Numbered from the stretch's first letter, positions 147 through 22,614 are shown. The stretch is 64,000 nt of DNA from Promethearchaeota archaeon (GCA_016839765.1 JAEOTP010000012.1:1-64000); one strand, 5' to 3'. Notes: generated from the letters alone by a model not told the origin. A program made the numbers and translations.

Positions 147-1448
147 TTAATGGGTGGCGCAAGAAATACATGGATCAAAAGCTCTTATAATTTTTTGAAT
201 TTCTTTCTTAACTTTATTTAAATCCTTTTTTTCATAGAGTTTTCGAGCATAATTACTAATCATATCGTTAATAAGTGCTATATTTATTTCTGTTGCTATA
301 AATAATTTAGCTTCTTTAAGAACATTTCTTTTATTAATTCGATAATGATGAATAAGCGATCCTCTAGGTGCTTCCACAACTCCAATACCTTCTCGAGAAA
401 TAATTGATTTAAGATTTGGTAGAGGAATGGTACTTTTTAGAATAGGATCCTCCAAAATTTTTAATGAATTTTGTGATTCAACATACATTTCAATTAAATT
501 TAAAAAGGACGCATATAGAATATTATTTCTCCATTTTTCATCAAAAAGACTTAAATATCCAGAAATTTCATCTGATCCATAACTTTCTACAACCTGATTT
601 CGAGAAATTGGTCCAACTAAATAATTATGATTTTTATCAGTAAAATCAATACCTCTTATTGTAGGATATTTGTCAAAATAATCGATATATTCTTCTAACC
701 TAAAGTCCTGATATTCGGCTAACCCCTTTTTTATGGTTAAAATACCATCATATCTATCATAGGATTTATTATTATTTAATGAAAGGAAATTAACATTTGG
801 GATTATAAAATCCTCTGGTGGGTTAAACTTTGAGAATAAATCAATAAAGTTTTTAATAATCCATTCTAAATTACTTAATACCCTTAAAAAGTATTTCTCA
901 ACAATAATTATCCTTTTCCGTGATGGTCTATAAATAACTCCACCAGGGATAGGTGTAATTGCATGGATTGATCTTCCCCCAAAAAGCTTATCTATATCAT
1001 TCCCGATTTTAATAATTTCATATATGTGAGAGGTTAATTGTGGATTATATTTTATTAAATCATAAATATCGATAGGTTTTGTATAAATTTTAAAGATATT
1101 TAATAGGTCTGGAAAAGATTGGAAAAAATAATGCATACTATGTGATTTTAATAACTCTCCTGCCATCAGGAGCCTTCTTACTAGAACAGATTGTTGATTG
1201 GCTTTTATATTATACATTTCTTCAATGCTTTTACAACTTACAATAGTTTGGGATGCATGGCATAATCCACATATTCTAGAAACAATTTTAGGAACATCTG
1301 ATAATTTTTTACCTATTAAAATATTTTCAAATCCTCTGAAGGCTAAAATTTCAAATTCCACATTCGAAATCTCATCATTTTGTATATAAATTTTTACATT
1401 ACCGTGACCCTCAACCCTTGTACACACATCAATAACTTTTTGCATCAT
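147..1448 (-). CDS. mvhA: Group 3 [NiFe]-hydrogenase large subunit (MvhA/HydA-like), no C-terminal extension
   Basis: TRVEGHG, L1 RICGLCH, GVVEAPRG, and L2 FDPCISCATH followed directly by the stop codon. Confidence 0.88.
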   Translation of the reverse strand: MMQKVIDVCTRVEGHGNVKIYIQNDEISNVEFEILAFRGFENILIGKKLSDVPKIVSRICGLCHASQTIVSCKSIEEMYNIKANQQSVLVRRLLMAGELLKSHSMHYFFQSFPDLLNIFKIYTKPIDIYDLIKYNPQLTSHIYEIIKIGNDIDKLFGGRSIHAITPIPGGVIYRPSRKRIIIVEKYFLRVLSNLEWIIKNFIDLFSKFNPPEDFIIPNVNFLSLNNNKSYDRYDGILTIKKGLAEYQDFRLEEYIDYFDKYPTIRGIDFTDKNHNYLVGPISRNQVVESYGSDEISGYLSLFDEKWRNNILYASFLNLIEMYVESQNSLKILEDPILKSTIPLPNLKSIISREGIGVVEAPRGSLIHHYRINKRNVLKEAKLFIATEINIALINDMISNYARKLYEKKDLNKVKKEIQKIIRAFDPCISCATH

Positions 1449-1449
1449 A

Positions 1450-2208
1450 TCACCATCGTATTTTTGGTTTCGAGAATCTATAAAAGATTCCTTTGTATTT
1501 TGTTAAATCTTTAGAGAGATTAATAAGACTTAAGAAATTTATCAAATTTGAGGTATAATCCTTAGATACTGGTCCTAAACATCCTTCACAGGGTATTCCC
1601 TGTTCAATACATATATGATCGCAGCCCTCCCTAGTTATTGGTCCTAAGCATAAAATTCCATTATCTAAAAAGCAATTAGATTTCTCATTAAAAATTGTTA
1701 ACTCATCATTTGATGGATTTAATTTGTTAACTGGTTTTTCAAAAGGAATATTATTATTTCCTCTTAGAGGGCATGATGAGCATAGATTTTTTTCCGATAA
1801 TTTTATTTCTTTATTTTCTATTAATCTTATTAAACAATTTCCTATTAGTTTTAAAGGAGGAGGACAACCAGGAATTATACCATCGATTTGGACGACATCT
1901 GATATTGCACCTGCTTTTTTCTTTTCAGATAAACTTAAAATTCCCCCAAATGCTGCACAAGTACCTAAAGCATATACTTTTTTTGCATTATTTCTAATAT
2001 CTTTTAATAGTTCAATTTGTGAATCCATCGAAATACAACCTTCTATTAAAGCAATATCGCCTTCTTCAATTTTATTCTCATCAGAGATAAAGGGAAAGTA
2101 AGAAAGTTTTATTCTTTCTAAAAACTGAGGAAATATATCACTTGAGATTAATTTAGATATACATCCACTACAGGATGTAAGTGATGCTATTAAGATTTTA
2201 AGTTTCAA
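1450..2208 (-). CDS. mvhG: [NiFe]-hydrogenase small subunit (MvhG/HydD-like)
   Basis: SCSGC, GTCAAFGG, PGCPP, CLGPITREGC, PCEGC; lies between the MvhD-containing gene and the large subunit. Confidence 0.85.
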   Translation of the reverse strand: MKLKILIASLTSCSGCISKLISSDIFPQFLERIKLSYFPFISDENKIEEGDIALIEGCISMDSQIELLKDIRNNAKKVYALGTCAAFGGILSLSEKKKAGAISDVVQIDGIIPGCPPPLKLIGNCLIRLIENKEIKLSEKNLCSSCPLRGNNNIPFEKPVNKLNPSNDELTIFNEKSNCFLDNGILCLGPITREGCDHICIEQGIPCEGCLGPVSKDYTSNLINFLSLINLSKDLTKYKGIFYRFSKPKIRW

Positions 2209-4744
2209 ATCTAATCTCCTCCGTTAATACGTTATAAAATTTATTTATTGCATTTGCAAATTTGGCACCTTCAACCGCATTCAGATTTTCTACTATTATC
2301 CTATTACTTAATCGGGGACCAAATACTTTCTTTAACAGGTTTACTTTTTTCTGAACTTTTTGAATTCCATCGATATATCTGCACGCATCTTTTCTACATC
2401 CAATAACCATTACACCATCAAATCCACACTCAAATGATTTAAGGATAAATTCAGTATCAATACGCCCGGTGCATGGTACTTTAATTATAAACACATTGGG
2501 ATGATAAAATAATTTCTTTAATCCCGCATCATCTGCAGCAGCATAACCACAGGATTTACAGCAAAAAGCAATAATCATTGGCTTTTTATTAAATTTAGAA
2601 AAAATTTCTATTGTTTTAAGTATTTTTTTGGAAGTATCAATATTTAAATCAATAGCATTTGTAGGACACACACTTACACATGATCCACAGCCTTTACATT
2701 TAAATTTATCGATATTTATTTTATCTCCCCCGATTATTATGGCATTATATGGACAAGATACTACGCATAATCCGCACAACCCACACTTTTCTTCATTTAT
2801 TTTAATTCCTGTAAATTCTGATACTAAATAGTCATTTGAAAGAAGATAGATTATTTCTAAAGCTGTTTGATTTGTTGTAGAAATTGTAGATTTATAATTT
2901 AATGGCCCAAAAATTGTACCAACGCCATAAATACCAGATGCTAAAGTTTCTCTACTCATGAAACCATTATCGTCTAAAGAAAAGTCCATGTATTTTCGAA
3001 GACTTTTTAAATCTTTGTTGGGAATATACTTAAGGTTTAATACTATCAAATCACTTAGAAATTCAGTATCATCAGCAACAACATAGTTTATATCTTTATT
3101 ACTTTTAACAGAAATATGATTAGCATAAATAAATCTAGGGTTAGTTGATCTTAATAAAATCTGATCCTTATCATTTAATTTACTCAAATCATAAAAAACA
3201 TTAACTTTACATTTAGCATTTCTTATTTTAATATCCTCAATATATTTTTGTGCTAAAATTTCAGAGTAATCTGAGATTAATTTTGAAGGTCCGACCTCTT
3301 GAACAATAGAAACCGAATTAACTGGTTTCTTATCCGATATTCTTAATAATTTCCCTTCTGTAATACCATCAGAAGATAATATACGCTCAAATTCAGGTGA
3401 AGTAATAATATTATTTTGAGGATTATAATGGTAATCCTTTAAGTTATCACTAAAATCTGCCCCGATAGCTATAACTTTTACACCAACCTTAATTCGGACT
3501 TTTTCTGGTTTTTCATTTAAATTTATTGCATTATTAATACAAGCTCGTTCACAAATCCTGCAATCGAGACAATCTTCAATATCTTCGTGATCAATTAAAG
3601 GGATATATGGATATGAATTCTGAAAAGGGATATAAATAACTTTTCGATATGACAGACCAAAATCGTATTGATTCTTTTTCTCCTTACCACAAACATTAAC
3701 GCATTGTTTACAACCGGTACATTTCTTTTCATCTATATATCGAGGTTTTTTAATTAATTCAATTGTAAAATTTCCCACTTCTCCTGAGATTGTTTCAATT
3801 TCGCTATTTGTAAATATATTGATATTCTTTTCTTTGACTATTTCTCCAATCAATTCTGAAGTGAAACAAATAGAACAATCACCCATCTCAGAGATACGGT
3901 GCCATCTAGCTACTTTACCCCCTAATGTTGGTGATTTTTCAATAAGATATACTTTTATTCCTGCTTTTGATAAATTCAGTGCTAAAGTCATACCTGCAAT
4001 ACCACCCCCTAATATTGCACAAGCTTTCTCAACTTCAACCGTTTTAATTTGAACTTCCTTTTGAAGCTTTACACGTTCAATTCCTGCTTCTATTAATAAT
4101 TCTACTTTTTTTAGAATTAGATCCGCACTAAATTTTTCGAGATTTGAATCATGAACCCAGCAGCATTGCTCCCTAATATTAGCAATTTCTATATTTGTAT
4201 GTTCAATCACATCTTTAAAGATACGTTCAAAAATATGTTGGTGTGTTTTAGGAGAACAAGCTGCAATTACTACTTTATTTAGAAAATTTTGTTTTGCCCA
4301 AGATGTGATTTTATTCAAATTCTTTTCTTGACATAAATTATCAAATATCTTGACAGAAACAACATCATTTAACTTTGCAATATACTTCTCTAATATTTCA
4401 ATATTAATAACATTAGAAATTTCAGTATTACAATCACAGATTATTACTCCTATACGATTTATTATATTTCCTCTTTTATCCAAATATTCTAATTCTTCGC
4501 CTGATAAAATACGTTTGTTTAAACTTATTATATTTAATACTCGTTTACCATCTTCTGTCAAAAAATAAGATTTTTTATCTTTGCTGATCAATGACCCAAG
4601 CTTTTTTAAGTGGAAATTTAATTGCCCCGTTTGGGCTAAACCCAATTTTTCCATTAAATCGGTATAAGGAATGAATCCCTCTCTTTCCAAAAGTAAGAGA
4701 ATCTTTCTACGAAAAGGATGTGATAATATTGAGTAAATATTCAT
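2198..4744 (-). CDS. Fusion of ArsR-like winged HTH, HdrA-like FAD/Fe-S protein (degenerate central region) and MvhD [2Fe-2S] domain
   Basis: N-terminal LSHPFRRKILLLL..GQLNFHLKKL..YFLTEDG; HdrA motifs IICDC, AACSPKTH, NIREQCCWVH, GGGIAG, DCSIC and ferredoxin motifs; C-terminal AFCCKSCGYAAAD..PCTGRID..GCRKDACRY. Confidence 0.85.
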   Translation of the reverse strand: MNIYSILSHPFRRKILLLLEREGFIPYTDLMEKLGLAQTGQLNFHLKKLGSLISKDKKSYFLTEDGKRVLNIISLNKRILSGEELEYLDKRGNIINRIGVIICDCNTEISNVINIEILEKYIAKLNDVVSVKIFDNLCQEKNLNKITSWAKQNFLNKVVIAACSPKTHQHIFERIFKDVIEHTNIEIANIREQCCWVHDSNLEKFSADLILKKVELLIEAGIERVKLQKEVQIKTVEVEKACAILGGGIAGMTLALNLSKAGIKVYLIEKSPTLGGKVARWHRISEMGDCSICFTSELIGEIVKEKNINIFTNSEIETISGEVGNFTIELIKKPRYIDEKKCTGCKQCVNVCGKEKKNQYDFGLSYRKVIYIPFQNSYPYIPLIDHEDIEDCLDCRICERACINNAINLNEKPEKVRIKVGVKVIAIGADFSDNLKDYHYNPQNNIITSPEFERILSSDGITEGKLLRISDKKPVNSVSIVQEVGPSKLISDYSEILAQKYIEDIKIRNAKCKVNVFYDLSKLNDKDQILLRSTNPRFIYANHISVKSNKDINYVVADDTEFLSDLIVLNLKYIPNKDLKSLRKYMDFSLDDNGFMSRETLASGIYGVGTIFGPLNYKSTISTTNQTALEIIYLLSNDYLVSEFTGIKINEEKCGLCGLCVVSCPYNAIIIGGDKINIDKFKCKGCGSCVSVCPTNAIDLNIDTSKKILKTIEIFSKFNKKPMIIAFCCKSCGYAAADDAGLKKLFYHPNVFIIKVPCTGRIDTEFILKSFECGFDGVMVIGCRKDACRYIDGIQKVQKKVNLLKKVFGPRLSNRIIVENLNAVEGAKFANAINKFYNVLTEEIRFET

Positions 4745-4820
4745 TTCAAAATCCTCCCTCTTTCTCTTTTATTATGGTTTTTTTCTTAATTTTTAATTTT
4801 TGATAAATTTATTTTTCCTC

Positions 4821-4850
4821 ATGATAATGATTGTTATCGAATTATTTAAA
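4821..4850 (-). promoter_or_regulatory. TATA box plus imperfect palindrome, shared with 14875-14904
   Basis: ATGATAATGATTGTTATCGAATTATTTAAA, 23/30 identical to 14875-14904, at a similar distance from the start codon. Confidence 0.45.
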
Positions 4851-5077
4851 TCTTTGTAAAATATTGATCACATAATGTATGAGATTCATAGTCCACATTA
4901 TGAATATTAGTCATTTTTTTGTTAATTTTAGATATAACTAAAAAAATTGTCATATTAGAGTTTTTGATTAAAAAATTTATCAAATTTGAAGAAATTATTC
5001 TTGTCAAATTCCTTTTATTTTGGTAAAATAATCATTTACTTAGAAAGTAAATTACTTGTAAATTTAAACTTAAAGAG

Positions 5078-5707
5078 GTGTATAACTTAATGGAAGTTTT
5101 GGAATTTAAACCAATAAGAGACAAAAAAATCGTAGTATATATGTCATCTAAAGAGAATGCTAAATATTTCCAAAATACTGATAACTCTAAACTTATAGAA
5201 TTTTTAAAAAAGAAAAATATTGACTTTGTCACTGTTGATTTTCAAGTTGATATAAAAGAATTCAGAACAACACCATTTGCTCAAACATTAAATGAACTAG
5301 ACATACCATATTTTCAATTAGATATTCCAGATTATGCTATGGGGTATCTATATCAGGAAATTATTGAAAAACAACAATTTCAAAATGAATTATTTGAAGA
5401 ATATGAAAATATGGAAGAAAAAGAATCGTTTAAAGGGCTTAGTTTAAAAAATTGGATAGATATGTTGGGGGAGGAAATTCAGGAAAGAGAAATTTTTCTT
5501 AGTTTAAAATTAAGACCTCAATGGATTGTTAAAAAAATGTTAGATTTAGCATTATCTTACAAGAAAGATACTGTGACATTTGTTCATTTTGTTAAAGAAG
5601 ATATCTGTGAAGATATTTGTCCGCAAGTAGTTGAAAATTTAAGAGAATTAAAAGTTAAAGTTATATCTTATAATAAAAAACATACAATTCAAAATATAAT
5701 ATTTTAA
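5078..5707 (+). CDS. Hypothetical protein, paralog of 5731..6456
   Basis: 209-aa ORF with SD GAGG; shares EVLExKP and K(L/V)RxxW segments with the next ORF. Confidence 0.75.
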   Translation: MYNLMEVLEFKPIRDKKIVVYMSSKENAKYFQNTDNSKLIEFLKKKNIDFVTVDFQVDIKEFRTTPFAQTLNELDIPYFQLDIPDYAMGYLYQEIIEKQQFQNELFEEYENMEEKESFKGLSLKNWIDMLGEEIQEREIFLSLKLRPQWIVKKMLDLALSYKKDTVTFVHFVKEDICEDICPQVVENLRELKVKVISYNKKHTIQNIIF

Positions 5708-5730
5708 TAAAAAAAGAGAGGCGATAATAA

Positions 5731-6456
5731 ATGCCAGAAGTATTAGAATTAAAACCTTTAAAAAATAAGAATTTAAAGTTAATTTTAATTGAGAGTGAGT
5801 TTCCTATCGACTGGTGGTTTGAAGTTCCCAAGGATTATAAAGAAGATCTTTTTTGGAATCTTCATTTAATTTCTAAGGAATACCTTCAATTAATTAATTC
5901 GTTAATAAAAAAATATAAACCGAATTTTATTTTAGAAGAAAGACCAAATTCATGGAGTGAAGAACTGAATGCAAATGATCCTTTAAAAATGCTTATTAAA
6001 AAACGTGGAATTCCGTTTAAACATACTGATATTTCAGAAAATGCTGAATTATATCTCTCTTCAGCGTTAGATGAACACAGGAGCATGGTTAAGAATCTCG
6101 AAAAAAGGATTAATGGTATAATGAAAGAATTTAAGGAAAAACCAGAAAATGATGAATTTTTTCAACGTTTAGTATTATGGAAAGAATATTTACAATTAGA
6201 TTACAATATTCAAGAAGATGAAGTCAGATATAAGGTTCGAGAAGCATGGATGATGATGAACATTTTGAAGTTTGCGAAAGAATTTGAAGGAAAGAAATTG
6301 AAATGTTTATTCATATGCGATCCGCGACACTTTAACGGTCTTGAGAAACTTTCATTGGATCTTGGTATTGAAACCGAACAAGTGAAAATAAGTAGAAGGA
6401 TTAAAACTGAAGGAGTCGGAGAAATATTTGAAAAAGATTTAGAAATTGATATTTAA
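5731..6456 (+). CDS. Hypothetical protein, paralog of 5078..5707
   Basis: 241-aa ORF, SD GAGG, operon-like spacing. Confidence 0.78.
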   Translation: MPEVLELKPLKNKNLKLILIESEFPIDWWFEVPKDYKEDLFWNLHLISKEYLQLINSLIKKYKPNFILEERPNSWSEELNANDPLKMLIKKRGIPFKHTDISENAELYLSSALDEHRSMVKNLEKRINGIMKEFKEKPENDEFFQRLVLWKEYLQLDYNIQEDEVRYKVREAWMMMNILKFAKEFEGKKLKCLFICDPRHFNGLEKLSLDLGIETEQVKISRRIKTEGVGEIFEKDLEIDI

Positions 6457-6505: not shown

Positions 6506-7501
6506 ATGGTAGAAAGAGAACTTGAAAATATTCTTGGAAAAAAGTCAATAATAGAATTAACACCAATTATTATTAAAAAGAAAGATACCTCCGATAAAAT
6601 TTGTTATTTTTTTGATACTGATGATAATGCATCTCCATTCGATATCAATATGGCATATGATGCCGGTTTTGATGTTGTAATCCCTTATAATAATATAAAA
6701 GCTGATAAAGTAACTCAATTAGTCCAAGATGCAATGTTTTCGAGAAAAGCAAACGCTCCAACAGTTTATTTTATTGGTGGTTCTGATGTAGAAGAAGCTG
6801 ACAAGATTGCTGAGATTGTATTAGATTCGCTTATACCTCCTTTTGAATCTCCTGTAATCATAGATCCAAGAGGAGCTCATACAACCGCAGCAGCAATGGT
6901 TGCTAAGACTATAGAAGTTACTCGAAAGCTAAGATGGCATGATATCTATGGTAAAAAAGCAGTCATTTTAGGAGGTACAGGTCCAGTTGGACAAATTGTT
7001 GCAATTTTAGCTGCAAAGCTTAATTGTACTGCTGTGATGACATCCCGACGAGCGGACTATGTCAAGACTTTAGCAAAGAACTTAACTGAAAAAGCAGGAG
7101 AAGGAGCAACCGAAATTGTTGGTGCTGTAGGGATTACTGACGAGCAAAAATATAGGTTTCTTAAAGAAGCTGATATTATTTGGTCTGTAGCTAAAGCAGG
7201 AGTGCAAATGGTTTCAAAAGAACTATTGGAAAAATTACCTAAGAATAAGATCATAGTTGATATCAATTTAGTACCTCCCTACGGAATTGAGGGATTAAAA
7301 CCAAAATTTGATGGTGATGAAATAATTCCAGGAATTTATGGAATTGGAGCTTTAGGTGTCGGGAGATTGAAATACAAGACTGAGAGTAATATTTTTAAAG
7401 AAGCATCAGAGAGCAAAGGTAAAAAAATCTTTAATTATAACAACGCGTTCAAACTTGCATGTAGAATTCTTTTCGGCGAAGAAATTAAGATTACAGTTTA
7501 A
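6506..7501 (+). CDS. NAD(P)-dependent methylene-H4MPT/H4F dehydrogenase family (MtdA/MtdB-like)
   Basis: SPFDINMAYDAGFD, DPRGAHTTAAA, GGTGPVG, DINLVPPYGIEG, GIGALGVGRLKY. Confidence 0.82.
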   Translation: MVERELENILGKKSIIELTPIIIKKKDTSDKICYFFDTDDNASPFDINMAYDAGFDVVIPYNNIKADKVTQLVQDAMFSRKANAPTVYFIGGSDVEEADKIAEIVLDSLIPPFESPVIIDPRGAHTTAAAMVAKTIEVTRKLRWHDIYGKKAVILGGTGPVGQIVAILAAKLNCTAVMTSRRADYVKTLAKNLTEKAGEGATEIVGAVGITDEQKYRFLKEADIIWSVAKAGVQMVSKELLEKLPKNKIIVDINLVPPYGIEGLKPKFDGDEIIPGIYGIGALGVGRLKYKTESNIFKEASESKGKKIFNYNNAFKLACRILFGEEIKITV

Positions 7502-8477: not shown

Positions 8478-11264
8478 ATGGAGAATCAAACAACCATAAT
8501 TAAAATTTTATTAGATAATAAACAGAAGATTTTGAAAGCAGCAAAATTCGATGAACCAGAGTTTGATAGCTTAATCTCCAAACTAAATAAAGCTGAAGAG
8601 CAAAGAAAAAAACTATCACAGAAAATTAAGGATATTAGAGAACTTAATATAGAAAAATTAAGTCATGAATTAGGAATTTCGCGTTATAAATTAACATTAA
8701 AGATCGATTACTTAAAAGAATTAGGATTTTTAAAAGCTGTCGGAAAGGAATCACGATTTTTCCAATATTTATTGGATGAATATAGATCTAAGGGTATTTT
8801 TCCTAACGTATCTATTATTAAAGAAAAGAACCTATGTTGCAATTGTGGATTATGCGTTTCTGTATGTCCTTTAAATGCTGTTAAGTATTCTGAGGATACT
8901 TTTGAAGTCATTGAGGAAGATTGTATCAATTGTGGATTATGTTTTGCATGTTGTCCGAGATCATTTTTTCCAATAACTCTCAAATTTATTAAAGAGAATG
9001 AAGATATAAAAACTAAATTTTCTGATCAAATAAATTATTATCGAGAAGTCTATACTGCCCAGACAAACGATAATCAAATAATTGAAGTTGCTCAAGATGG
9101 AGGTATTGTAACAAGCTTATTAAAGACTGCTTTTCAAGTAAATATGATTGATTGTGCTTTGGCTGTTGGATTAGCAAATAAACCACACAAACCAGCACCT
9201 ATCTTCGTTGAAAATGTAGATGATTTATTAAAAACGGCTGGGACAAAATATAGTAATACACCTTCTTTAAAAATTTTACATGAATCTAAAAAATATAAAG
9301 ATATTGCGATAGTGGGGACACCTTGTATGATGGAGGGGCTTAAAAAAATATCCATCTATCCATTTAACGAACCTTTTTATGATAATATCGCTATAAAAAT
9401 TGGATTATTTTGTATGGAATCATTTAATTACTCACAAATTTTAGAGCTGTTAAAAAATGAATTTCAAAAACCTGCTGATGATATTATTAAAATGAATATA
9501 GATAAAGGTAGATTTCTTGTTTATAGTAAAGATGGTACTTCGTTAGATGTTCCTTTAAAAAAAGTCAAAAAGTATGGAAGACTGGGATGTTTTTTCTGTG
9601 ATGATTTGACTGCTGAACAAGCAGATATATCAGTAGGGTCTATTGGTTCTGAACCGGGATGGTCAACTGTTATAATTAGGACTCAAAAAGGTGCTGATCT
9701 ATTTCAAAAAGCATTAGATTTAAAAATAATCGAAAAGAAAGAAATTAAGGAAGATGATAAAAGATTTGTTTATTTAGAACGGATAGCTAAGTCAAAAAAG
9801 AAAACATATAAGGAAGGGCGTAGGCCCAAAATGATTGAACAAGATCCTAAAGAAAGAATAAAAAATTTTGATGAGGTTCCTTTAGGATTAACTGAAGAAA
9901 TGGTGAAATTAGAAGCTCAAAGATGTTTACAATGTGGGAGGCCTTTATGCATTAAAGGGTGTCCAGTAAACATTAATATCCCTGAATTTATTAGATTAAT
10001 CAAATTAGGTAAAAATGCTGATGCATTACATCTAATTAAAAGAAATAATTTATTACCAGCGATTTGTGGAAGAGTTTGTCCTCAAGAAACCCAATGTGAA
10101 GAAAAATGCCTATTAAATTCACTTGGAGAACCTATTTCAATCGGTTATTTAGAAAGGTTTCTTGCTGACTGGGAAAGAAAAAATAAGCTTAAAGAATGTC
10201 CTGACTGTCAACCCTCCAATAATATTAAAGTGGCTGTTATTGGATCTGGACCTGCTGGGTTAACATGTGCGGGCGATCTTGCAATGAAAGGTTATAATGT
10301 TACTCTTTTTGAAGCTTTTCATGCAGGTGGAGGAGTATTGGTCTATGGAATACCTGAATTTAGATTGCCTAAGGAAATTGTTAAAGATGAGATTAAAACT
10401 TTGAAAATGCTTGGTGTTAAGATAAATTATAATACTATTATTGGTAAAATTTTAACTCTAGAAGATTTAAAAGAAGAGGGTTTTAAGGCATTTTTCATAG
10501 GTGTTGGAGCAGGGCTTCCTATGTTCCTAAGAATTCCTGGATTAAGTTTGAATGGTGTACTAACAGCAAATGAATTTCTAACAAGATCTAATTTGATGAA
10601 AGCATATAGATTTCCAGAATATGATACACCAATAAATGTTGGAAAGATAGTTACTGTTATCGGTGGAGGGAATGTTGCTTTAGATTCTGCCCGAACCGCT
10701 CTAAGATTGGGCTCTGATAGAGTTATAATCGTTTATAGACGATCTGAAAAAGAAATGCCAGCAAGACTTGAAGAATACCATCATGCAAAAGAAGAGGGTG
10801 TTGAATTTAAATTTTTAACAAATCCAACACGAATCATTGGTGATGAGAATGATAATGCTATAAAAATGGAGTGTCTTAAAATGAAATTAGGAGAACCAGA
10901 TGATTCAGGAAGGCGAAGACCTATCCCAATTAAGGATTCAGAATTTATAATTGAAACTGATACAATAATACTTGCAATTGGAGCTTTAGCAAATCCCGTT
11001 CTTACAAAATCAATCCCTGATTTAAAATTAAACAAATGGGGTTATATCGAAACTGACACGGGCGGAAGGACGAGTATAGAAGGAGTATATGCTGGAGGAG
11101 ATATAGTAACTGGAAGTGCTACAGTAATCTCTGCTATGGGTGCAGGAAGAATAGCCTCAGCGGCTATAGATAAATATCTTAGAAATAAATTTCTGAGTAA
11201 GGTAGGTTCTATTGAAGTTGAAATAATGAAAATTAAAACAATTAAGAAAGAGCAGATAAAATAA
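8478..11264 (+). CDS. nfnB: Fusion of an HTH-like N-terminus, 2x[4Fe-4S] ferredoxin, FrhB/FdhB (F420-binding) domain and Nfn large subunit (NfnB/SudA/GltD-like)
   Basis: AQDGGIVTSLL, AGTKY, VGTPC, IGLFCMESF and DISVGSIGS (FrhB); RCLQC..GCPV, CGRVCPQETQC, GSGPAGL, GGGNVALD and AGGDIVTG (NfnB). Confidence 0.88.
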   Translation: MENQTTIIKILLDNKQKILKAAKFDEPEFDSLISKLNKAEEQRKKLSQKIKDIRELNIEKLSHELGISRYKLTLKIDYLKELGFLKAVGKESRFFQYLLDEYRSKGIFPNVSIIKEKNLCCNCGLCVSVCPLNAVKYSEDTFEVIEEDCINCGLCFACCPRSFFPITLKFIKENEDIKTKFSDQINYYREVYTAQTNDNQIIEVAQDGGIVTSLLKTAFQVNMIDCALAVGLANKPHKPAPIFVENVDDLLKTAGTKYSNTPSLKILHESKKYKDIAIVGTPCMMEGLKKISIYPFNEPFYDNIAIKIGLFCMESFNYSQILELLKNEFQKPADDIIKMNIDKGRFLVYSKDGTSLDVPLKKVKKYGRLGCFFCDDLTAEQADISVGSIGSEPGWSTVIIRTQKGADLFQKALDLKIIEKKEIKEDDKRFVYLERIAKSKKKTYKEGRRPKMIEQDPKERIKNFDEVPLGLTEEMVKLEAQRCLQCGRPLCIKGCPVNINIPEFIRLIKLGKNADALHLIKRNNLLPAICGRVCPQETQCEEKCLLNSLGEPISIGYLERFLADWERKNKLKECPDCQPSNNIKVAVIGSGPAGLTCAGDLAMKGYNVTLFEAFHAGGGVLVYGIPEFRLPKEIVKDEIKTLKMLGVKINYNTIIGKILTLEDLKEEGFKAFFIGVGAGLPMFLRIPGLSLNGVLTANEFLTRSNLMKAYRFPEYDTPINVGKIVTVIGGGNVALDSARTALRLGSDRVIIVYRRSEKEMPARLEEYHHAKEEGVEFKFLTNPTRIIGDENDNAIKMECLKMKLGEPDDSGRRRPIPIKDSEFIIETDTIILAIGALANPVLTKSIPDLKLNKWGYIETDTGGRTSIEGVYAGGDIVTGSATVISAMGAGRIASAAIDKYLRNKFLSKVGSIEVEIMKIKTIKKEQIK

Positions 11265-11270
11265 GAATTT

Positions 11271-13532
11271 ATGAGGATTATAGATATGGAATCAGATCAA
11301 AAATTAAGAATTAAAGATGCTTTTAAAGAGGATGCTGGAAGAGGAATTGTTAGAATAGATCCGGATATAATAAAAAAATTAAAGTTAAAAGTAGGTGATG
11401 TTATAAGAATTTCTCATCCTTTGGTGAATAAAAAAACTGTTGCATTATTATCATCAGGAAGAATTGAAGATAATGGAACCCAAGTAATTAGAATGGATCC
11501 TTCTTTAAGGAGAAATTTAAATGCTTCTATTGATGATTTTGTAGAGATAAAAAAAATTGAAGTAGATTTAGCTACGAGTATAAGTTTTGCTGGATTAAAT
11601 AGCTCATTGATCCCCCGGGATCCTCAAGCTTTGGCAAGAAAATTAGAAAATCGGGTCATCACTCTGGGAGACACTCTGAGTTTTTACGCAATGGGTCATA
11701 GAATTGATATAGCTGTTGTTAATTATACTCCAAAGACAGAGGCCGTTAAAATTTCTCTTAATACAAATATAAAGTTTACAGAAAAACCTCAAAATACTAT
11801 TGAAACACGAAAAGTCATAGTTAAACATGAAAAAATAAGTGATATTGAAGAGAAATTACAAGAAATACGTGAAAAAGTAACTTATGAGGATATTGGTGGA
11901 TTAGAAGCATTAATTCAAAAGATTCGTGAAATTATTGAACTTCCAATAAGACATCCGGAACTTTTTGAGAGAATAGGAATTGAACCACCTAATGGAGTTT
12001 TATTATATGGTCCCCCAGGTACAGGAAAAACATTATTAGCAAAAGCAGTTGCCTCAGAAACAGATGCAAATTTTATTAGTATTAGTGGTCCTGAAATAAT
12101 GAGTAAGTTTTTTGGGCAGAGTGAAGAAAATCTCAGAAAATTATTTGAAGAGGCTAAAGAGAATTCTCCTTCGATAATTTTTCTGGATGAATTAGATTCT
12201 CTTGCACCAAAAAGGGATGAAGGGAAAAATCAAGTTGAATCAAGGGTTGTTGCTCAATTATTATCACTTATGGATGGATTAAAAGGGAGAGGAGAGGTAA
12301 TTGTAATAGGAGCAACTAATAAAGTAAATAATATTGATATTGCATTACGAAGACCCGGAAGATTTGATAGAGAAATTGAAATAAAGGTCCCAGATAGTAA
12401 TGGACGTTTTGAAATATTATTAATTCATACCAGAGGAATGCCTTTAGGCGAAGATGTGAATTTAAGATTGATAGCTGAAAAAACTCACGGGTTTGTTGGA
12501 GCAGACATAAAATCTCTATGCAAAGAAGCTGCATTCCTTGCTATTCGTGAAATAATTCCTGAAATTGATTTAGATGAACCAGTTCCGGAAGTAGTTTTAA
12601 ATCAATTAAAAATAAAAATGAGCCACTTTATTGAAGCTCTAACTAACATTGAGCCATCAGCCTTAAGAGAAGTGTTAATAACTCATCCCTCAGAAACATG
12701 GGATGATGTTGGGGGATTGAGGGAAGCAAAACAAGAATTAAAAGAAATAGTTGAATGGCCCTTAAAATATCCAGAGTTTTATAAATATATGAAATCGAGA
12801 CCTCCTAATGGTATTCTTATATATGGTCTACCTGGTACTGGAAAAACTTTACTTGCTAAAGCTCTTGCTCACGAAACTGAGATTAATTTTATCTCAGTGA
12901 AAGGTCCCGAATTCTTATCTAAATGGGTAGGAGAAAGTGCTAAAGCTGTTCGAGAGGCTTTCCGGAAAGCACGATCCACGGCACCATGTATTATTTTCTT
13001 TGATGAGATAGACGCTATCGCATCTAGACGTTCAGAATCTTCTGATTCAAGGGTAACAGATCAGATTGTAGCACAACTTCTAACTGAAATGGATGGTTTG
13101 GAAGAATTGAAAGATGTAGTGTTGATTGCAGCTACTAATAGACCTGATTTGCTCGATCCTGCTTTACTAAGATCAGGGAGATTTGGTAGACATATTGAAA
13201 TTCCTCTCCCAGATAAAAATACTCGTATAAATATATTCAAAATTCATCTAAAAGATCGTCCTATTAATGATAAAATTGATATAGAATCATTAGCTCAAGA
13301 ATTAGAAGGATATAGTGGTGCTGATATTGAAGCAGTATGTGAAGAAGCTACAATTTTAGCAATTCGAAAAGGAGTTTTCCATGTTGATATTGATGCATCA
13401 AATCCTAATTCTTATTCTAAAATTAAAATTTCCCAAGAAGATTTTGAAAAAGCTATAGCAAAAATCAAAAAAGTTGCAGATAAAGCAAATAAATCCTACA
13501 GGGAAGTTTCCTACAGTGAAATATATAGATAA
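11271..13532 (+). CDS. cdc48: CDC48/VCP family AAA+ ATPase
   Basis: N-domain plus two AAA modules ([16 protein letters not shown]); C-terminal IYR fits an HbYX motif. Confidence 0.95.
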
Positions 13533-13643: not shown

Positions 13644-14801
13644 TTATGTTTCATCATTTGTCAATATCGCTGAAGTAGTTTTCCATGATTTCAATTTGTT
13701 TATCATATTTTGCTCTGTTCTTGTTATTTTTGATTGAGAGTATTGCGTAATTTTTTCTTTCATTTTATTTTTAACGGTGTTATCCATTCTTAAACACTTA
13801 ATTATCCCTGTTTTAATTGCTCTATCAACTATATCCTTTCCTTTTTTAGTTCGAGTTATTACAGTTGTAAATTTATCTTCGGAACCTAATCCTCCAAAAG
13901 AAATATCAGCATAAATGTTAGTAAAATCTTTGCAAACCCCACAAGCGGGGCGCATATAATCAGTTAAACTTTCAAAAGGCACATGAATCTTTTTTTGGGG
14001 CGCTTTATGATTTTTTAATTCAATAATTAAATTTTCCTTAATATTTATTCTCTGAATATTTTTGAATTTAATTTTAAATTGTTTCTCAAATTGTGTCAAT
14101 TTTGTTCTATCAAAGAAAAAATTCTCATAGCAAAATAAACCAAGACAAACTTCTATGTTTTCTGATGGTATTATCCCTAAGCTTTGCATACATCTAATTG
14201 TGTAAATTTGGCAGGGAGTTCCTACAAATGCTAACTTATTGAATTTATAGTGTCTTAATTTAGGTAATGAACTTATATATGTGTGAAATTTCTGCACGGT
14301 ATCTAGTTGTGGAGAAATATCCAATTTTGTACCTGATGCATTGATTAAATCTTGTTTAGTTTTTGCGATAGTTGCCTCTCTAGAGAAAGGTGATTTTGTT
14401 TTTGCTACAATTGCCCCATTAATAATTTTTTTTTCTATTAAGTAATTTATAATTGTGTTTACAACGCCTCCATCTGTCCCATATTTTAAAAATTCTTTAT
14501 CCATAGATTGACATGAATAAATATTATCTACAAAACCCAAAGGCATTAATGAAAAATCTGAAAAATTAAAAGTTTCATTAAGATCTTCATCTAAAACATG
14601 TGTCTGTGGACAAATAAAATAGCATATACTACACTCAAGGCATTTTTCCTTGTTTATGTATTCTGGAGGTGAATTAAGATCCTTAAAGCCAATTACTTCG
14701 TTTTCTATTGAGTTACAAAAACTCACACAGCCACCACATTGTTGACAAATACCGAGTTCATGAACCTCTTTTATTAAATCTTGAAAAACTTTATTTTTCA
14801 T
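13644..14801 (-). CDS. Coenzyme F420 hydrogenase/dehydrogenase beta subunit family (FrhB/FdhB) with ferredoxin N-terminus
   Basis: CQQCGGC, CLECSIC, GTDGGVV, VGTPCQ, LGLFCYENF, CGVCKDF, DISFGGLGS. Confidence 0.88.
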   Translation of the reverse strand: MKNKVFQDLIKEVHELGICQQCGGCVSFCNSIENEVIGFKDLNSPPEYINKEKCLECSICYFICPQTHVLDEDLNETFNFSDFSLMPLGFVDNIYSCQSMDKEFLKYGTDGGVVNTIINYLIEKKIINGAIVAKTKSPFSREATIAKTKQDLINASGTKLDISPQLDTVQKFHTYISSLPKLRHYKFNKLAFVGTPCQIYTIRCMQSLGIIPSENIEVCLGLFCYENFFFDRTKLTQFEKQFKIKFKNIQRINIKENLIIELKNHKAPQKKIHVPFESLTDYMRPACGVCKDFTNIYADISFGGLGSEDKFTTVITRTKKGKDIVDRAIKTGIIKCLRMDNTVKNKMKEKITQYSQSKITRTEQNMINKLKSWKTTSAILTNDET

Positions 14802-14874: not shown

Positions 14875-14904
14875 ATGATAAATATTGTTGTCATAATATA
14901 TAAA
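14875..14904 (-). promoter_or_regulatory. TATA box plus imperfect palindrome upstream of the FrhB-family gene
   Basis: ATGATAAATATTGTTGTCATAATATATAAA; matches 4821-4850. Confidence 0.45.
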
Positions 14905-15043
14905 TGTGATCTTTTTCTTATATTGCATGCCCATATATAGTCAATTGAATGTTAAATAATCCTAGATCCCATCATGAAATCGATAGATCTACTGCTGGAG
15001 AACGATCAGGCAAAGATCAGATCCGTACATTTGATTAACGAAA

Positions 15044-15061
15044 TGACAAAAATTTTTGTCA
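15044..15061. promoter_or_regulatory. Perfect 18-bp palindrome, candidate operator in the frhB/hdrA divergent region
   Basis: TGACAAAAATTTTTGTCA. Confidence 0.4.
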
Positions 15062-15235
15062 AATTTATTAAAATTTCTCTTATCATATTTTTTAAATTTA
15101 ATTTAAACCATCTTTTTATTGGAATAGGAGATTAAAAAACATTTTTTGCTTTTAGCAAATTTTTTGTTCTTTCAATTTCATAAATTTGCTAAATTACCTA
15201 TCACTAGTTGGTGATGTTTTAAATAGGTGAATTAA

Positions 15236-17272
15236 ATGTCTGAAATACAGACCAAAGTGAGAATCGGAGTTTATATATGTAGATGAGGAGTTAATATTAG
15301 TGCTTCAATCGATTGTAATCTTATTAGAGATTATGTTGAAGCACTACCAAACGTTTTTGTTGCTAAAGTAAATGATTTTACTTGTAGTGATCCAGGACAA
15401 AATATTATCAAAAACGATATTTTAGAATTAGACTTAAATCGGGTAGTTGTTGCAGCTTGTACACCAAAAATTCATGAATCCACCTACCGATTAGTTTTAG
15501 CTCAAGCAGGATTAAGCCCTTATTACTTCCAAATGGTTAATCTTCGCGAACATTGCTCATTTACTTACTCCAGAAATAAGAGAAGCATTACTGAAAAAGC
15601 TATAAGGTTAGTGCAAGCAGGGATAAATCGTGCCAGAGAATTAGAAATTATACCTTATAAAAAGATATCAGTAGAAAAATCGGTATTAATTATCGGTGCT
15701 GGTATTGCAGGGATGAATGCTGCATTAGACTTAGCAAATCATGGAATAAATGCAAATTTAGTCGAAAAGGAAGCCACAATTGGCGGAAAAATGGCACAAT
15801 TAGATCGAATATATCCTACAGACGATTGTGCTATATGAGTTCTAGCGCCTATTATGGTTAGTGCTTCAAAACATCCAAATATAAAATTATTTACCTATAG
15901 TGAAGTTATTAAATTCGAGGGCATCCCAGGAAATTATAATGTTAAAATACACAAGAAACCTCGTTTTATTAATGAAAATAAGTGTACTGGTTGTGGATTA
16001 TGTACGACTAAATGTCCAATAAAAGTACCTAACGAATTTAACAGAGGTATTGGGGAACAAAACGCGATTTACATACCTTTTCCTCAAGCAGTGCCCAGAA
16101 TTGCTCTAATTGATAAGAGTGTATGTATAGAATGTAAAAATTGTCAAAAATGTTGTCCCACAGAAGCTATTGAATTAGATCAAACCTCAGAATATATCGA
16201 TTTAAAAGTTGGTGCGGTAATTATTGCCACAGGTTGGGATGAATATCCAATTATGAAAAAAAATGAATATAAATATGGTATTTATCCAGATGTTATTACT
16301 CAAATAGAGTTAGAACGTATGTTAAGTCCAGTTGGACCAACCGGTGGTCAAGTGTATAGAATTTCTGATGGAAAAATCCCCAAAACAGTAGCTATGATTC
16401 AATGTGTGGGTTCAAGATCCTTAAAAGGGAATCCCTATTGCTCAGGAGTATGTTGTAATGTTGCACTTAAAAATGCTCAATTGTTAAAGCAAGAATATCC
16501 AGATATAGAAATTGTTATCTTTTATATAGACATGCGGACATGGGATAAAGGCAATGAAGAATATTATAGAAAAGCGAGAAAAGCGGGAATAATGATGATT
16601 CGTGGAAAAGTAGGAGACATTCGAGAAGATACTAGCATAAAGAAAATAAAACTTACAGCTTCTTCAACTTTAACCAATGATTTCATTACCATGAATACCG
16701 ATTTAGTTGTATTATCTACAGGTATGGTCCCTTCTAAAAAAGCGGCACAAATTATTGAGACATTAGGTATAGCTAAAGATATGAATGGGTTTTTAAGTGA
16801 AGTTCATGGATGCCTAAAACCTCAAGAGACAAATAATTTAGGTATTTATATATGCGGCTGTGCTACTGGACCTAAAAATATCCCTTATTCAGTATCAACT
16901 GCATTAGCTGCAGCAAGTAAAGCATCTATTTTGCTTTCTAAAGATACAATAACTCAAGAATTAATCATCGTTGAAGTAAATGAAAATCTATGTATGGGTT
17001 GCCATAGATGTGAAAAACTATGTAATTTTAAGGCAATAAAAATTAATGGAGAGAATATAGCTGAAGTAGACGACTTAAAATGTAAAGGTTGCGGAGTTTG
17101 TGTTACATCATGTCCCGCTCGAGCAATTGACCTTAAGTATTACAGAGATAAACAAATTATTGAAGAGATAAAAGGGATTTGTAGTACTGAACTTGAATAT
17201 AAGGAAGAATTTATTGAATCTATTGAACTTATTTGGAAAAAGATTGAAGCTTTAGCTCCTTATCAAACATAA
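15236..17272 (+). CDS. hdrA: Heterodisulfide reductase subunit A, probable selenoprotein with two Sec (U17, U201), 678 aa
   Basis: SD AGGTGA then ATG at 15236. One frame reads MSEIQTKVRIGVYICR-TGA(15284)-GVNI...YPTDDCAI-TGA(15836)-VLAPIMVS. Both TGAs occupy Cys positions of HdrA motifs (CxCG, DCxxC). ORF-track pieces 15533..15838 and 15854..17272 are in this frame. Confidence 0.9.
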
Positions 17273-17932: not shown

Positions 17933-19288
17933 ATGTTAGAAGATAAAAAAAAGGATCAGGCAAAAATTGTTTATCCAGAAGCTTTAATTACTACTGACCA
18001 AATTGAAGTTTCTAGAATTGTAGAGAAAGAAATACTAATTGAAACTAACCCATTTGAAATGGCAAAAAAACAAATCGATATTGTTGCTGAAAAGATAGGA
18101 TTAGATCCAAATATAAGGGAATATCTCAAAAGAGTGGAACGCTCATTAATTGTATCAATTCCAATTATGATGGATAATGGCTCTTTAAAGATATTTGAAG
18201 GATATCGGGTACATCATTCTACTGTTAGAGGTCCTGGAAAAGGTGGTATTAGGTATTCACCAGATGTCTATTTGGATGAAATTAAAGCTTTAGCCACATG
18301 GATGACATTTAAATGTAGTCTTTTAAATTTGCCTTTAGGTGGGGCAAAAGGGGGAGTTTGCGTAGACCCTCGAAAGTTATCAGAGGGAGAATTAGAGCGT
18401 CTAACTCGGAGATATACTGCTGAAATTATAAATGTTATAGGCCCAGATATAGATATTCCCGCTCCAGATATTAATACAGGTCCTCAAATTATGGCTTGGA
18501 TTATGGACACCTATTCTATGCATAAAGGGAGAGCTATTCCTGGAGTAGTGACAGGAAAACCAATAGAAATAGGAGGTTCAGTTGGGAGAGAAACTGCAAC
18601 TGGAATGGGTTTATTTTATGTTCTCGAAGCTTTGTGCAATAAAATAAATATAGATCTAAAAACCCAGAATATTGTTGTTCAAGGATTTGGCAATGTTGGG
18701 GGTAATATTGCTAATATTTTACATGAGAAAGGTTGTAATATTATCGCTGTCTCGGACATTACTGGAGGTTTATACGCCAAAAGTGGATTAAATATAAAAG
18801 AGTTATTAGAATGGAGAGATAGAAATAATTATCTAAAAGATTTTCAAAATAAAAATTATAAATTTATCACTAATGAAGATATACTCACGATTAAATGTGA
18901 TATTTTAATCCCAGCAGCAATAGAAAACCAAATAACACAATCAAATGCTTATAATATTAATTGTAAAATTATATTAGAAGGTGCTAATGGACCAACTACT
19001 CCAAAAGCAGATGGTATTTTGAAAAAACGGGGAATTATTGTTGTACCTGATATTCTTGCTAATGCTGGAGGTGTATGTGTCTCATATTTCGAGTATATTC
19101 AAGATATCCATAGCTATTTTTGGAATTTAAACAGGATTAATCAAGAACTAGAAAATATTCTTGTTGAGGCATTTGAAGATGTTTACAGTTTATCTAAAGA
19201 AAAATTTGTCACTCTGCGTACAGCTGCATACATGATTGCTATTTTGAAATTAGCTAAGGCAATCGAATTAAGAGGTATATTCCCATAA
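17933..19288 (+). CDS. gdhA: Glutamate dehydrogenase (Glu/Leu/Phe/Val DH family), paralog 1 with N-terminal extension
   Basis: [41 protein letters not shown]. Confidence 0.93.
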   Translation: MLEDKKKDQAKIVYPEALITTDQIEVSRIVEKEILIETNPFEMAKKQIDIVAEKIGLDPNIREYLKRVERSLIVSIPIMMDNGSLKIFEGYRVHHSTVRGPGKGGIRYSPDVYLDEIKALATWMTFKCSLLNLPLGGAKGGVCVDPRKLSEGELERLTRRYTAEIINVIGPDIDIPAPDINTGPQIMAWIMDTYSMHKGRAIPGVVTGKPIEIGGSVGRETATGMGLFYVLEALCNKINIDLKTQNIVVQGFGNVGGNIANILHEKGCNIIAVSDITGGLYAKSGLNIKELLEWRDRNNYLKDFQNKNYKFITNEDILTIKCDILIPAAIENQITQSNAYNINCKIILEGANGPTTPKADGILKKRGIIVVPDILANAGGVCVSYFEYIQDIHSYFWNLNRINQELENILVEAFEDVYSLSKEKFVTLRTAAYMIAILKLAKAIELRGIFP

Positions 19289-19749: not shown

Positions 19750-20652
19750 TTAAACTTTTTTTTGAATTTTAAATTTTACTTTGTGAGTCATTTTATAAAG
19801 ATCTATAAAACTTGACACATTAATTGGGTGTTGAATTCCATCTAATGTTTTAATTTCATCATTAATAAATCTCCAGAGATTTTTTTCATCTTTAGCAATA
19901 ATTTTTACTAATAAATTATGATCTCCAGTTGACGATGCAACCAATTGTATATCGTCATAATCGGCTAACTTTTTTGCTATTTCCTCCAATTTCATTGGAT
20001 CGACAGATAAACCAAGAATGGCTATAGATTCATATCCCACTTTAAATGGATCTACGAGAGTATCAAATTTTGTTATGATTCCTTCTTTTACCATATTTTG
20101 TACTCGATTATGAATTGTACTCGCAGCTAAATTTACGTTTTTACTTAAATCTTTATAAGAGATTCTATAATTTTCTTGTAAAAAATTAAGAATTTCTTTA
20201 TCTTTTTCATCAAATTGCATTTTTAGAACTTTATCTGAAACTTTTTCACTTTCAATTCTGTGTCGTTCAATTGCATACAAGATTGCCCGAGTTAAACTTG
20301 GTCCATTAAGTTCACTTTTTACTATATAATCTTGGGCTCCCTTTTGAAGAGATAGTAATGCAAAATCTTTATCATCTAATCCAGTTAAAATTATTATAGG
20401 AATTGCATCAGTAAAACTTAAAACTCTTTCTAAAGTAGATTCTCTATCGCTATCTGGTAGAGTTAAATCTAATAAAATAACATCAAAGTTTTTAGTTTTA
20501 AGATTATTCAAACTTTCAGAAAGCCTAGAATATGCCTCTAAATCAAATTTAAATTCTGCAGAATCTTTTAATAATTCTTTAATAAGACGTACATCAGCAG
20601 AATTATCTTCAATTAGTAATATATTAAAATTCTTATTCTCTATATTATTCAC
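19750..20652 (-). CDS. Response regulator receiver fused to an Lrp/AsnC transcription factor
   Basis: ILLIEDN..LLDLTLPD..ILTG..GAQDYIVK, then DEKDKEILNFLQEN..LAASTIHNRV..STGDHNLL. Confidence 0.9.
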   Translation of the reverse strand: MNNIENKNFNILLIEDNSADVRLIKELLKDSAEFKFDLEAYSRLSESLNNLKTKNFDVILLDLTLPDSDRESTLERVLSFTDAIPIIILTGLDDKDFALLSLQKGAQDYIVKSELNGPSLTRAILYAIERHRIESEKVSDKVLKMQFDEKDKEILNFLQENYRISYKDLSKNVNLAASTIHNRVQNMVKEGIITKFDTLVDPFKVGYESIAILGLSVDPMKLEEIAKKLADYDDIQLVASSTGDHNLLVKIIAKDEKNLWRFINDEIKTLDGIQHPINVSSFIDLYKMTHKVKFKIQKKV

Positions 20653-20989
20653 CTAAAAATATTTGTTATGGATAAAGAGATAAAATCTTTTTCAATTTTA
20701 TTTTCCTTATTCTGAATAATATTCATTTTAATATAAATAATTATTTTATTTAGAATTTAAAGAGATTCATTTTAATTATACCATTTTTAAGAGTAAAAGG
20801 CAAATTATAATTATTTTTATAAATTCTAAACTGAAATCTCATTTTTTGAACTAGAAAATATGATATTTTTGTTCGCTAAAATTTATTTTATATTGGACAA
20901 TATTCTAATTAATGAAGAATTTTTCCTATGATTTTTTCTCAATCCTTTTTAAAAATTTAAATTAATGAATACATAACAAAATAAGAGAA

Positions 20990-22057: not shown

Positions 22058-22069
22058 TGGTGTGGAATA

Positions 22070-22516
22070 GTGAATGAATACAATAGAACTAAGGCTAAAA
22101 TCTTACTCATAGAAGATAATGCGGCAGATATTCGGCTAACGAAGGAAGTTCTTCAAGAGAGTAAAATTGTGAGTAGATTAGACGTTGTGAGGGATGGTGT
22201 TGAAGCGATTGATTTCTTAAAGAAGAGAGGTAAATTTTCTAATACTAGTAAACCAAATCTAATCCTTTTGGATTTAAATTTACCAAAGAAGAATGGTTTT
22301 GAGGTATTGGAAATTATTAAACAAGATAAAGAATTAAAAAGAATTCCTATAGTAATATTAACCGTATCTGATGCAAAAGAAGATTTAATAAAAGCTTATA
22401 ATCTCTATGCTAATTCTTATGTAATTAAACCATTAGAAATGAAGGAATTCTATAAAATTATTAACTCAATCGTAGATTTTTGGTTTACGATTGTAAAGCA
22501 TTTTGAGGATGAATAA
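22070..22516 (+). CDS. Single-domain response regulator (Rcp1-like)
   Basis: LLIEDN, LLDLNLPKKNG, ANSYVIKP, FWF. Confidence 0.92.
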   Translation: MNEYNRTKAKILLIEDNAADIRLTKEVLQESKIVSRLDVVRDGVEAIDFLKKRGKFSNTSKPNLILLDLNLPKKNGFEVLEIIKQDKELKRIPIVILTVSDAKEDLIKAYNLYANSYVIKPLEMKEFYKIINSIVDFWFTIVKHFEDE

Positions 22517-22614
22517 ATAGGAATTAAAATAGATTTGCTTTTGTTGATTTGATGATTATATTATGTTAAAAATAAAAAGATTTTATTTTACTACATTACT
22601 AGCTGAAATCATTA

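Follow-up and report, generated by a model that had tools for sequence, protein, structure and literature searches.

A winged helix-turn-helix–HdrA–MvhD fusion with its own [NiFe] hydrogenase: a candidate H2-responsive transcription factor of Asgard archaea

We asked whether a [NiFe] hydrogenase operon of an Asgard archaeon could turn H2 directly into a change in transcription. The operon lies at 147-4744 of the window, by which we mean the whole stretch of DNA that was analysed (64,000 nucleotides of Promethearchaeota archaeon, GCA_016839765.1 JAEOTP010000012.1:1-64000), and the window is the beginning of contig C33 of a 3.3-Mb Lokiarchaeia genome that is 96% complete. Its three genes, all on the minus strand, encode a fusion of a winged helix-turn-helix (HTH), an HdrA-like part and an MvhD-like part (2198-4744, an open reading frame of 848 amino acids), an MvhG-like small subunit (1450-2208, 252 amino acids, with an 11-nt overlap with the fusion gene) and an MvhA-like large subunit of a group 3 [NiFe] hydrogenase (147-1448, 433 amino acids). 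A first-pass annotation had called this a tight three-gene operon whose large subunit ends at DPCISCATH, and both statements hold: the frames are tightly coupled and a stop codon follows that motif. From the comparisons below we consider it quite probable that the fusion regulates a set of palindromic sites, and we lean towards the fuller reading, that of a one-component, hydrogenase-coupled transcription factor that senses H2. The [NiFe] H2 sensors known to us are bacterial and signal through kinases, and the question of how archaeal transcription responds to H2 is, to our knowledge, long-standing and open. No description of an HTH-HdrA-MvhD fusion was found in the literature searched, most subscription journals lying outside its coverage.

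A fused DNA-binding head and its candidate operator

Is the HTH a genuine part of the protein? Profile matches placed DUF7347/winged HTH at residues 3-73, HdrA from residue 97 and FlpD/MvhD at 724-840 (on the minus strand, the ArsR-like winged HTH, residues 1-80, occupies 4505-4744, the HdrA-like part, residues 97-705, 2630-4456, and the MvhD-like [2Fe-2S] domain, residues 720-848, 2198-2587). DUF7347 and HTH_24 scored above the cut-off, HTH_20 also matched, and the ArsR family HTH_5 matched weakly. In the AlphaFold model (predicted local distance difference test, 86.6) the winged HTH is confident and the linker at 82-93 is the sole low-confidence part; the best structural matches of the model are the HdrA chains of 5ODC, 8RVU and 7BKB, and the winged HTH weakly matches structure 1Y0U. 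Thus domain search and structure prediction recovered the winged HTH, the HdrA body and the C-terminal MvhD, as annotated. A prediction of an HTH homodimer scored 0.31, below the 0.42 mark, and is not used as evidence. The fusion is not an assembly artefact, because nearly all of its matches, in 93 of the 151 Lokiarchaeia genomes, are single open frames. The HTH is as conserved as the flavin adenine dinucleotide (FAD) domain (mean identity 70%), residues G40, N43 and H45 of its recognition helix are nearly invariant, and the ratio of nonsynonymous to synonymous change (dN/dS) is about 0.06 by a rough count, no higher than in the FAD domain; it is under strong purifying selection, and its possible absence from orthologues, raised by the first-pass annotation, was not seen.

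The architecture and its synteny were then followed across genomes. Homologues carry Promethearchaeota labels. In Lokiarchaeia the fusion is essentially single-copy and is missing from family f2 (0 of 13 genomes); full-length forms are also present in Bathyarchaeia and in another four Asgard families, Thor- and Hermodarchaeia (by their protein labels) among them. Among 1.84 billion representatives, about nine of the top matches cover both the HTH and the HdrA N-terminus, so that the fusion forms a single narrow family. In 59 of 61 loci the gene order is fusion, small subunit, large subunit; contig ends cut the other two. Only 4 of the 58 genomes that lack a fusion match have an orthologous large subunit, and at least two of the four hold a contig-broken fusion. 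An apparent fusion joining small and large subunit in family f3 was rejected, as the two lie in different reading frames. No ATG, GTG or TTG start was found for 5 of 43 fusion, 3 of 36 small-subunit and 1 of 40 large-subunit genes; non-canonical starts are real in some lineages and not general, and in some genomes of genus g1 (L036-L038) ATA is apparently the start of the fusion.

Next, does a DNA site accompany the protein? An unbiased dyad search upstream of 43 non-redundant fusion genes, with 1229 promoters as the control, ranked GACAA and GATAA with a spacer of 6 first, and an 18-bp palindrome, TGAYAA-N6-TTRTCA, precedes the fusion operon. It was present in 21 of the 43 fusion upstream regions versus 5 of the 1229 controls and was essentially absent at other spacers. 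A weight matrix found four sites in the divergent region 4745-5077, the expected place of binding, where a conserved operator-like palindrome is therefore present; its two best matches in the genome, at 15043 and 14875, lie between frhB and hdrA, outside the training set. Further untrained sites precede all 27 orthologues of the 209-residue protein that heads the divergent operon (o209) when these lie away from the fusion, compared with 7 of 1229 controls, and all seven of the closest frhB orthologues. In Hermod- and Thorarchaeia such sites fall in the promoters between the large subunit and the TraB-like/mtd genes. Moreover, in Bathyarchaeia, a different phylum, each locus long enough to hold both has two sites, one ∼65 nt before a hoxEFUY-like operon and one after the large subunit, with at most 0.04 expected per locus. 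Over whole genomes, the perfect palindrome was found in 31 of 93 with the fusion and in 6 of 58 without it (one of the six has an orthologous large subunit), and a wrong-spacer control in 5 of 151.

The palindrome might instead belong to another regulator, for example one of the Lrp/AsnC and receiver-Lrp proteins encoded at 19750-23208, with the fused HTH doing something else or nothing. Lrp/AsnC-family genes lie near the operon in nine loci, and two genomes in which the fusion was not found, G020 and G033, carry sites. Yet the motif accompanies the fusion in those loci of Hermod-, Thor- and Bathyarchaeia in which Lrp/AsnC genes were not seen, the recognition helix is nearly invariant, like the motif, and no strong site was found at the TraB-like/mtd genes of seven fusion-lacking genomes or at the mtd of an eighth. 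The frhB orthologues also lack a site in 23 of 25 loci from genomes without the fusion, although most of these are paralogues that have no site in fusion-bearing genomes either; the with/without comparison for frhB was rejected as a clean test because most matches are such operon-internal paralogues, siteless in both groups. We regard ownership by another regulator as very improbable. As a matching palindrome accompanies the DNA-binding head through many archaea and precedes the same targets, the enzyme probably switches genes directly when H2 changes.

Ligands kept and lost in the redox subunits

Which parts of the electron path has the fusion kept? In 61 of 61 orthologues (one Cys in 59 of 61) the Cys residues of the N-terminal cluster, of the inserted and the C-terminal ferredoxin domain and of MvhD (all five) are invariant. 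Cys290 and Cys293 are kept and align with Cys202 and Cys205 of the HdrA of Mvh-Hdr, proposed as the electron relay from MvhD to the FAD (PMC13580544). The FAD residues E453 and K500 are invariant, and K500 corresponds to Lys409 of 5ODC, the Lys beside flavin N5 (PMC13514486). The N-terminal, ferredoxin and FAD motifs listed by the first-pass annotation are thus retained, and its replaced cluster motif is also borne out by alignment: the four Cys positions of the central cluster are E483, I490, S494 and E495, and GPKDI has become GPLNY. We take this cluster to be HA4, on the basis of 5ODC and the alignment. HA4' is the high-potential exit from which the electron passes to HdrB (PMC12350162). 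No Lokiarchaeia orthologue on the tree has more than two of the HA4 Cys, and the cluster is intact in families f21, f17 and f12 and in Bathyarchaeia.

Of the hydrogenase subunits, the small one keeps 12 Cys in 53 of 53 and the large one retains the four Ni-binding Cys and the catalytic Glu and Arg motifs. Position 67 of the large subunit, after L1 and near the Ni site, is Gln, not the usual His, and aligns with Gln67 of Cupriavidus necator HoxC (pHG1). In addition, both proteins end at their last His (His433 here, without a cleavable tail), while chain F of 5ODC has 25 further residues beyond the matching position. Gln67 was found in 42 of 42 Lokiarchaeia loci and in 0 of 17 other Asgard loci; the tail is absent in 39 of 43 Lokiarchaeia loci, and the remaining loci have 5-11 residues. 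This Gln has been called characteristic of regulatory hydrogenases (PMC5665086), and it adds a second sensor-like trait to the tail loss, the mark first taken to indicate a sensor, which is true of Lokiarchaeia but not defining, distant orthologues having tails of 7-13 residues. Large subunits of family f21 (L077, L079-L081) have Lys for Arg in L1 and no terminal His after the second CxxC.

When did these traits arise? A quick tree of the fusion, for which three long-branched HdrA paralogues served as the root, has the HTH as ancestral; HA4 decay maps to f24 together with Lokiarchaeia, and the Gln and the tail loss are confined to Lokiarchaeia. Orthologues from Thor-, Hermod- and Bathyarchaeia and from family f21 keep the four HA4 Cys, the His and the short tail, and most HA4-intact groups also have the operator (f21 weakly). 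Because these distant orthologues have the HTH and the operator without the changes, HA4 loss, Gln and tail loss are later events, and the sensor-like traits are therefore not needed for the HTH/operator pair. This would provide an ordered series from enzyme to sensor, in which the HTH was gained first, HA4 was lost next, and the Gln and the loss of the tail came last.

The same pattern raises another possibility, that the complex is a trigger enzyme comparable to PutA, whose main role is metabolic, as an H2:ferredoxin or H2:heterodisulfide enzyme, and which controls its own genes and those next to it as well. The intact HA4, His and tail of the Thor-, Hermod-, Bathyarchaeia and f21 forms speak for it, as do the invariant E453 and K500 and the hoxEFUY-like operon upstream in Bathyarchaeia, which has no large subunit of its own in the locus, and it is likeliest for the HA4-intact forms outside Lokiarchaeia. 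In the genome studied here, however, HA4 is lost and a separate Vhu-HdrBC system is present, no hdrBC was seen beside the fusion in the window or in the Bathyarchaeia loci, and the codon adaptation of the operon lies at the 12th-38th percentile versus the 96th and 72nd for vhuA and vhuG (a weak indication from five reference genes). Overall, a trigger enzyme seems rather unlikely to us.

The absence of HdrBC from the window, part of the first description, stands in that no CCG (HdrB-type) protein is encoded there, but many CCG proteins are encoded elsewhere in the genome. A vhuG-vhuA-vhuU-hdrC-hdrB operon lies on contig C46, with hyp-like genes and a HycI protease in its vicinity, so that metabolism is independent of the fusion operon. 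In this metabolic vhuG-vhuA system (G000:C46:18660-22987) the C-terminal Ni ligands are on a separate small VhuU-like peptide that holds an in-frame TGA, and hdrC and hdrB come next.

Predicted targets and control logic

Are the sites placed where they could repress or activate? At the fusion promoter two adjacent sites (4800-4819 and 4821-4840) lie just downstream of the TATA box (4843-4850, minus strand), and at frhB the second-best site of the genome (14875-14894) lies just downstream of its TATA box (14897-14904, minus strand). Across fusion and frhB promoters the site starts 10 nt after the start of the TATA box, over the likely transcription start. The other two sites of the divergent region (4934-4953 and 4964-4983) lie before the plus-strand operon, the second ending ∼29 nt upstream of a TATA-like box at 5013-5020, and in o209-mtd promoters generally the site ends ∼28 nt before a conserved TATA. 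The positions thus suggest repression of the fusion's own operon and of frhB and activation of the mtd operon, a reading derived from the established geometry of archaeal promoters and not from mapped starts. The best site genome-wide (15043-15062) lies between frhB and a divergent selenoprotein hdrA.

The plus-strand operon begins with two paralogous proteins of 209 (probable start ATG 5096) and 241 amino acids (5078-6456) that are co-inherited with the fusion: an o209 orthologue was found in 36 of 37 fusion-bearing versus 4 of 58 other genomes. Neither protein has a Pfam match, and their resemblance to TraB/ChaN is weak (Atlas lead 0.84; in a fold search, ChaN at Z 8.4, root mean square deviation 3.8 and 146 aligned, tied with CbiL at Z 9.2). 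A methylenetetrahydromethanopterin dehydrogenase of the nicotinamide adenine dinucleotide (phosphate) (NAD(P))-dependent MtdA/B type (Mpt_N) follows at 6506-7501 (+). The paralogues and this dehydrogenase accompany the fusion in 44 loci, either divergent upstream or directly downstream, which makes mtd a conserved predicted target; the TraB-like/mtd unit is often fused into one protein of 560 amino acids. The 241-residue type, which is joined to Mtd in many of the Asgard genomes, may serve as a domain for regulation or scaffolding. A Cdc48 paralogue (11271-13532, plus strand) comes after mtd in 19 loci, apparently within the regulated operon.

Another predicted target is the FrhB-like coenzyme F420-binding protein (13644-14801, minus strand). 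The proposal that the fusion controls a divergent nfn/mtd operon and frhB therefore stands for the mtd unit and frhB, both of which have sites, but nfn lies beside the conserved unit in only five loci and was dropped as a conserved target. Behind nfnA an FrhB domain is fused to an NfnB/GltD-like protein (8478-11264, plus strand), possibly an F420-linked Nfn variant; its 110 extra N-terminal residues have no Pfam match, and an HTH at its beginning was rejected for want of a Pfam match. The canonical hdrA (15236-17272, plus strand) is a possible target. Its cluster motif, cited as the intact reference, is intact, but reading it means passing two in-frame TGA codons, both of which stand at conserved Cys positions and are probably selenocysteine; several other hdrA genes of the genome are split by in-frame TGA in the same way.

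The nature of these targets bears on what the signal is. The fusion might be a transcription factor that responds not to H2 but to general redox, through the ferredoxin pool and its retained ferredoxin domains or through oxidant damage, or to nickel or cofactor loading. The invariance of every ferredoxin-type cluster favours such a signal. So do the targets, since mtd, frhB, hdrA and the hox-like diaphorase are genes for redox carriers and not for hydrogenase structural proteins. Moreover, a reversible hydrogenase would equilibrate with the redox state of the cell. Against this, the dedicated hydrogenase always stays in the operon and comes and goes with it; it also has conserved catalytic ligands and has converged on HoxC traits. 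We therefore hold a signal other than H2 to be unlikely.

Other observations concern the neighbourhood. In a Bathyarchaeia locus (L230:4378-9629) a gcvH-hoxE-hoxF-hoxU-small subunit operon without its own large subunit lies directly upstream of the fusion operon; it is headed by the palindrome, with hypA and hypF nearby. In the window, three glutamate dehydrogenase-like genes, recognised by sequence, occur within 10 kb (17933-19288, 25017-26267 and 26539-27795), and 19750-23208 holds a receiver-Lrp/AsnC fusion, a histidine kinase-like gene, a lone receiver and a second AsnC-type protein. At 38892-41024 (minus strand) a 710-residue protein has proline-rich repeats, HTH-like segments and HNH motifs and is possibly mobile.

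Relation to known systems and a proposed mechanism

How does the system compare with those already described? It has the fold and subunit set of the methanogen MvhAGD-HdrABC complex (5ODC, 8RVU, 9SW2, 7BKB) for HdrA, MvhD, MvhG and MvhA, and shares with this group 3c bifurcating enzyme the FAD motif, the Lys409 and Glu equivalents, the Cys202/Cys205 pair and the ferredoxin clusters. It differs in the added N-terminal winged HTH, the loss of the HA4 ligands in Lokiarchaeia, the lack of hdrBC in the operon and the tail-less large subunit with Gln for His. Scores lie far below the family cut-offs: the fusion reaches 551 against a cut-off of 1100 bits for HdrA2-type HdrA-MvhD fusions (NCBIfam NF040770), and the large subunit 160 against 800 bits for VhuA. 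The large subunit matches group 3 models and structures best, and in a small tree with only three outside references the large subunits of fusion loci group together as a separate clade that leaves out HoxC and two metabolic MvhA/VhuA proteins; the classification is thus group 3 and not group 2b. The Asgard group 3 subgroups 3e-3l have been named phylogenetically (Appler et al., bioRxiv 10.1101/2024.07.04.601786), and in the passages of that work considered here no regulatory role or HTH fusion is given for them. One of these subgroups probably includes the large subunit, a candidate placement.

The regulatory hydrogenase (RH) system HoxBC-HoxJ-HoxA of C. necator (group 2b), whose Rhodobacter counterpart is HupUV-HupT-HupR, shares the Gln67 for His and the end at His. 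In both systems a dedicated hydrogenase stands beside a metabolic one, and H2-dependent transcription is proposed here. However, our large subunit is of group 3 type, is 24% identical to HoxC in short stretches and separates from it in the tree, so the likeness is convergence. In contrast to HoxJ/HoxA signalling, the DNA-binding domain is on the electron-accepting flavoprotein itself; no kinase or response regulator is present in the fusion operon, and a kinase family occurs within about 8 kb in only nine loci. Other parallels are the flavoenzyme-repressor PutA and the archaeal redox regulators SurR and MsvR, which respond to sulfur or thiols: in all three, as proposed here, a DNA-binding domain is covalently attached and is under the control of the redox state of a cofactor or thiol, and SurR activates and represses by site position. 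We know of none of them that is wired to a hydrogenase or built on HdrA.

Several points weigh against an H2 sensor. Good sites occur in G020 (99% complete) and G033 (94%), where no fusion was found, family f21 has the fusion but weak sites, and the genomes are kin, so site and co-occurrence counts overstate independence. RH controls energy-converting hydrogenases, and here no strong site was found upstream of the metabolic vhu genes (best 9.9). HA4, the His and a short tail persist in distant orthologues. The Gln seems uninvolved in H2 sensing (PMC5665086), and RH is just one of the few [NiFe] hydrogenases that are naturally tail-less (PMC8229454). One G020 locus (L188, G020:C120) has frhB, hdrA, o209 and TraB-mtd, all with strong sites; an assembly gap or a recent loss would explain why the fusion was not found in this genome.

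If the H2 sensor is real, the dedicated, probably low-turnover hydrogenase would oxidise H2 with its intact ligands, and electrons would pass from MvhG to the [2Fe-2S] cluster of MvhD, Cys290/Cys293 and the FAD of HdrA, the order suggested by Mvh-Hdr structures. With HA4 gone in Lokiarchaeia, the chain presumably could not work as a heterodisulfide reductase with turnover, and its flavin and clusters, lacking an exit to HdrBC, would report H2 pressure. The HdrA N-terminal domain belongs to the mobile arm of Mvh-Hdr (PMC12350162, PMC13580544), which swings between states. As the winged HTH is attached to this domain, the redox state could reposition the two HTH heads of an HdrA dimer, which would bind TGAYAA-N6-TTRTCA. 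By site position, the fusion operon and frhB would be repressed and the TraB-like/mtd operon activated, a reciprocal control that may trade F420-linked for NAD(P)-linked one-carbon and redox enzymes according to H2.

What would this mean for Asgard archaea? H2 exchange is central to models of the origin of eukaryotes from these organisms, and the analysis names a candidate archaeal H2 sensor, an 18-bp operator and its targets. We favour, by a little, the view that this is the first archaeal [NiFe] H2 sensor and the first case of a hydrogenase linked directly to a DNA-binding domain: the gating arm of a bifurcation machine would have come to act as a transcriptional switch that has a defined operator and controls a dual repressor/activator regulon. 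On this view it is widespread among Asgard archaea and converges stepwise on bacterial sensor traits. If true, the moving arm of an electron-bifurcating complex would be reusable as a signalling output.

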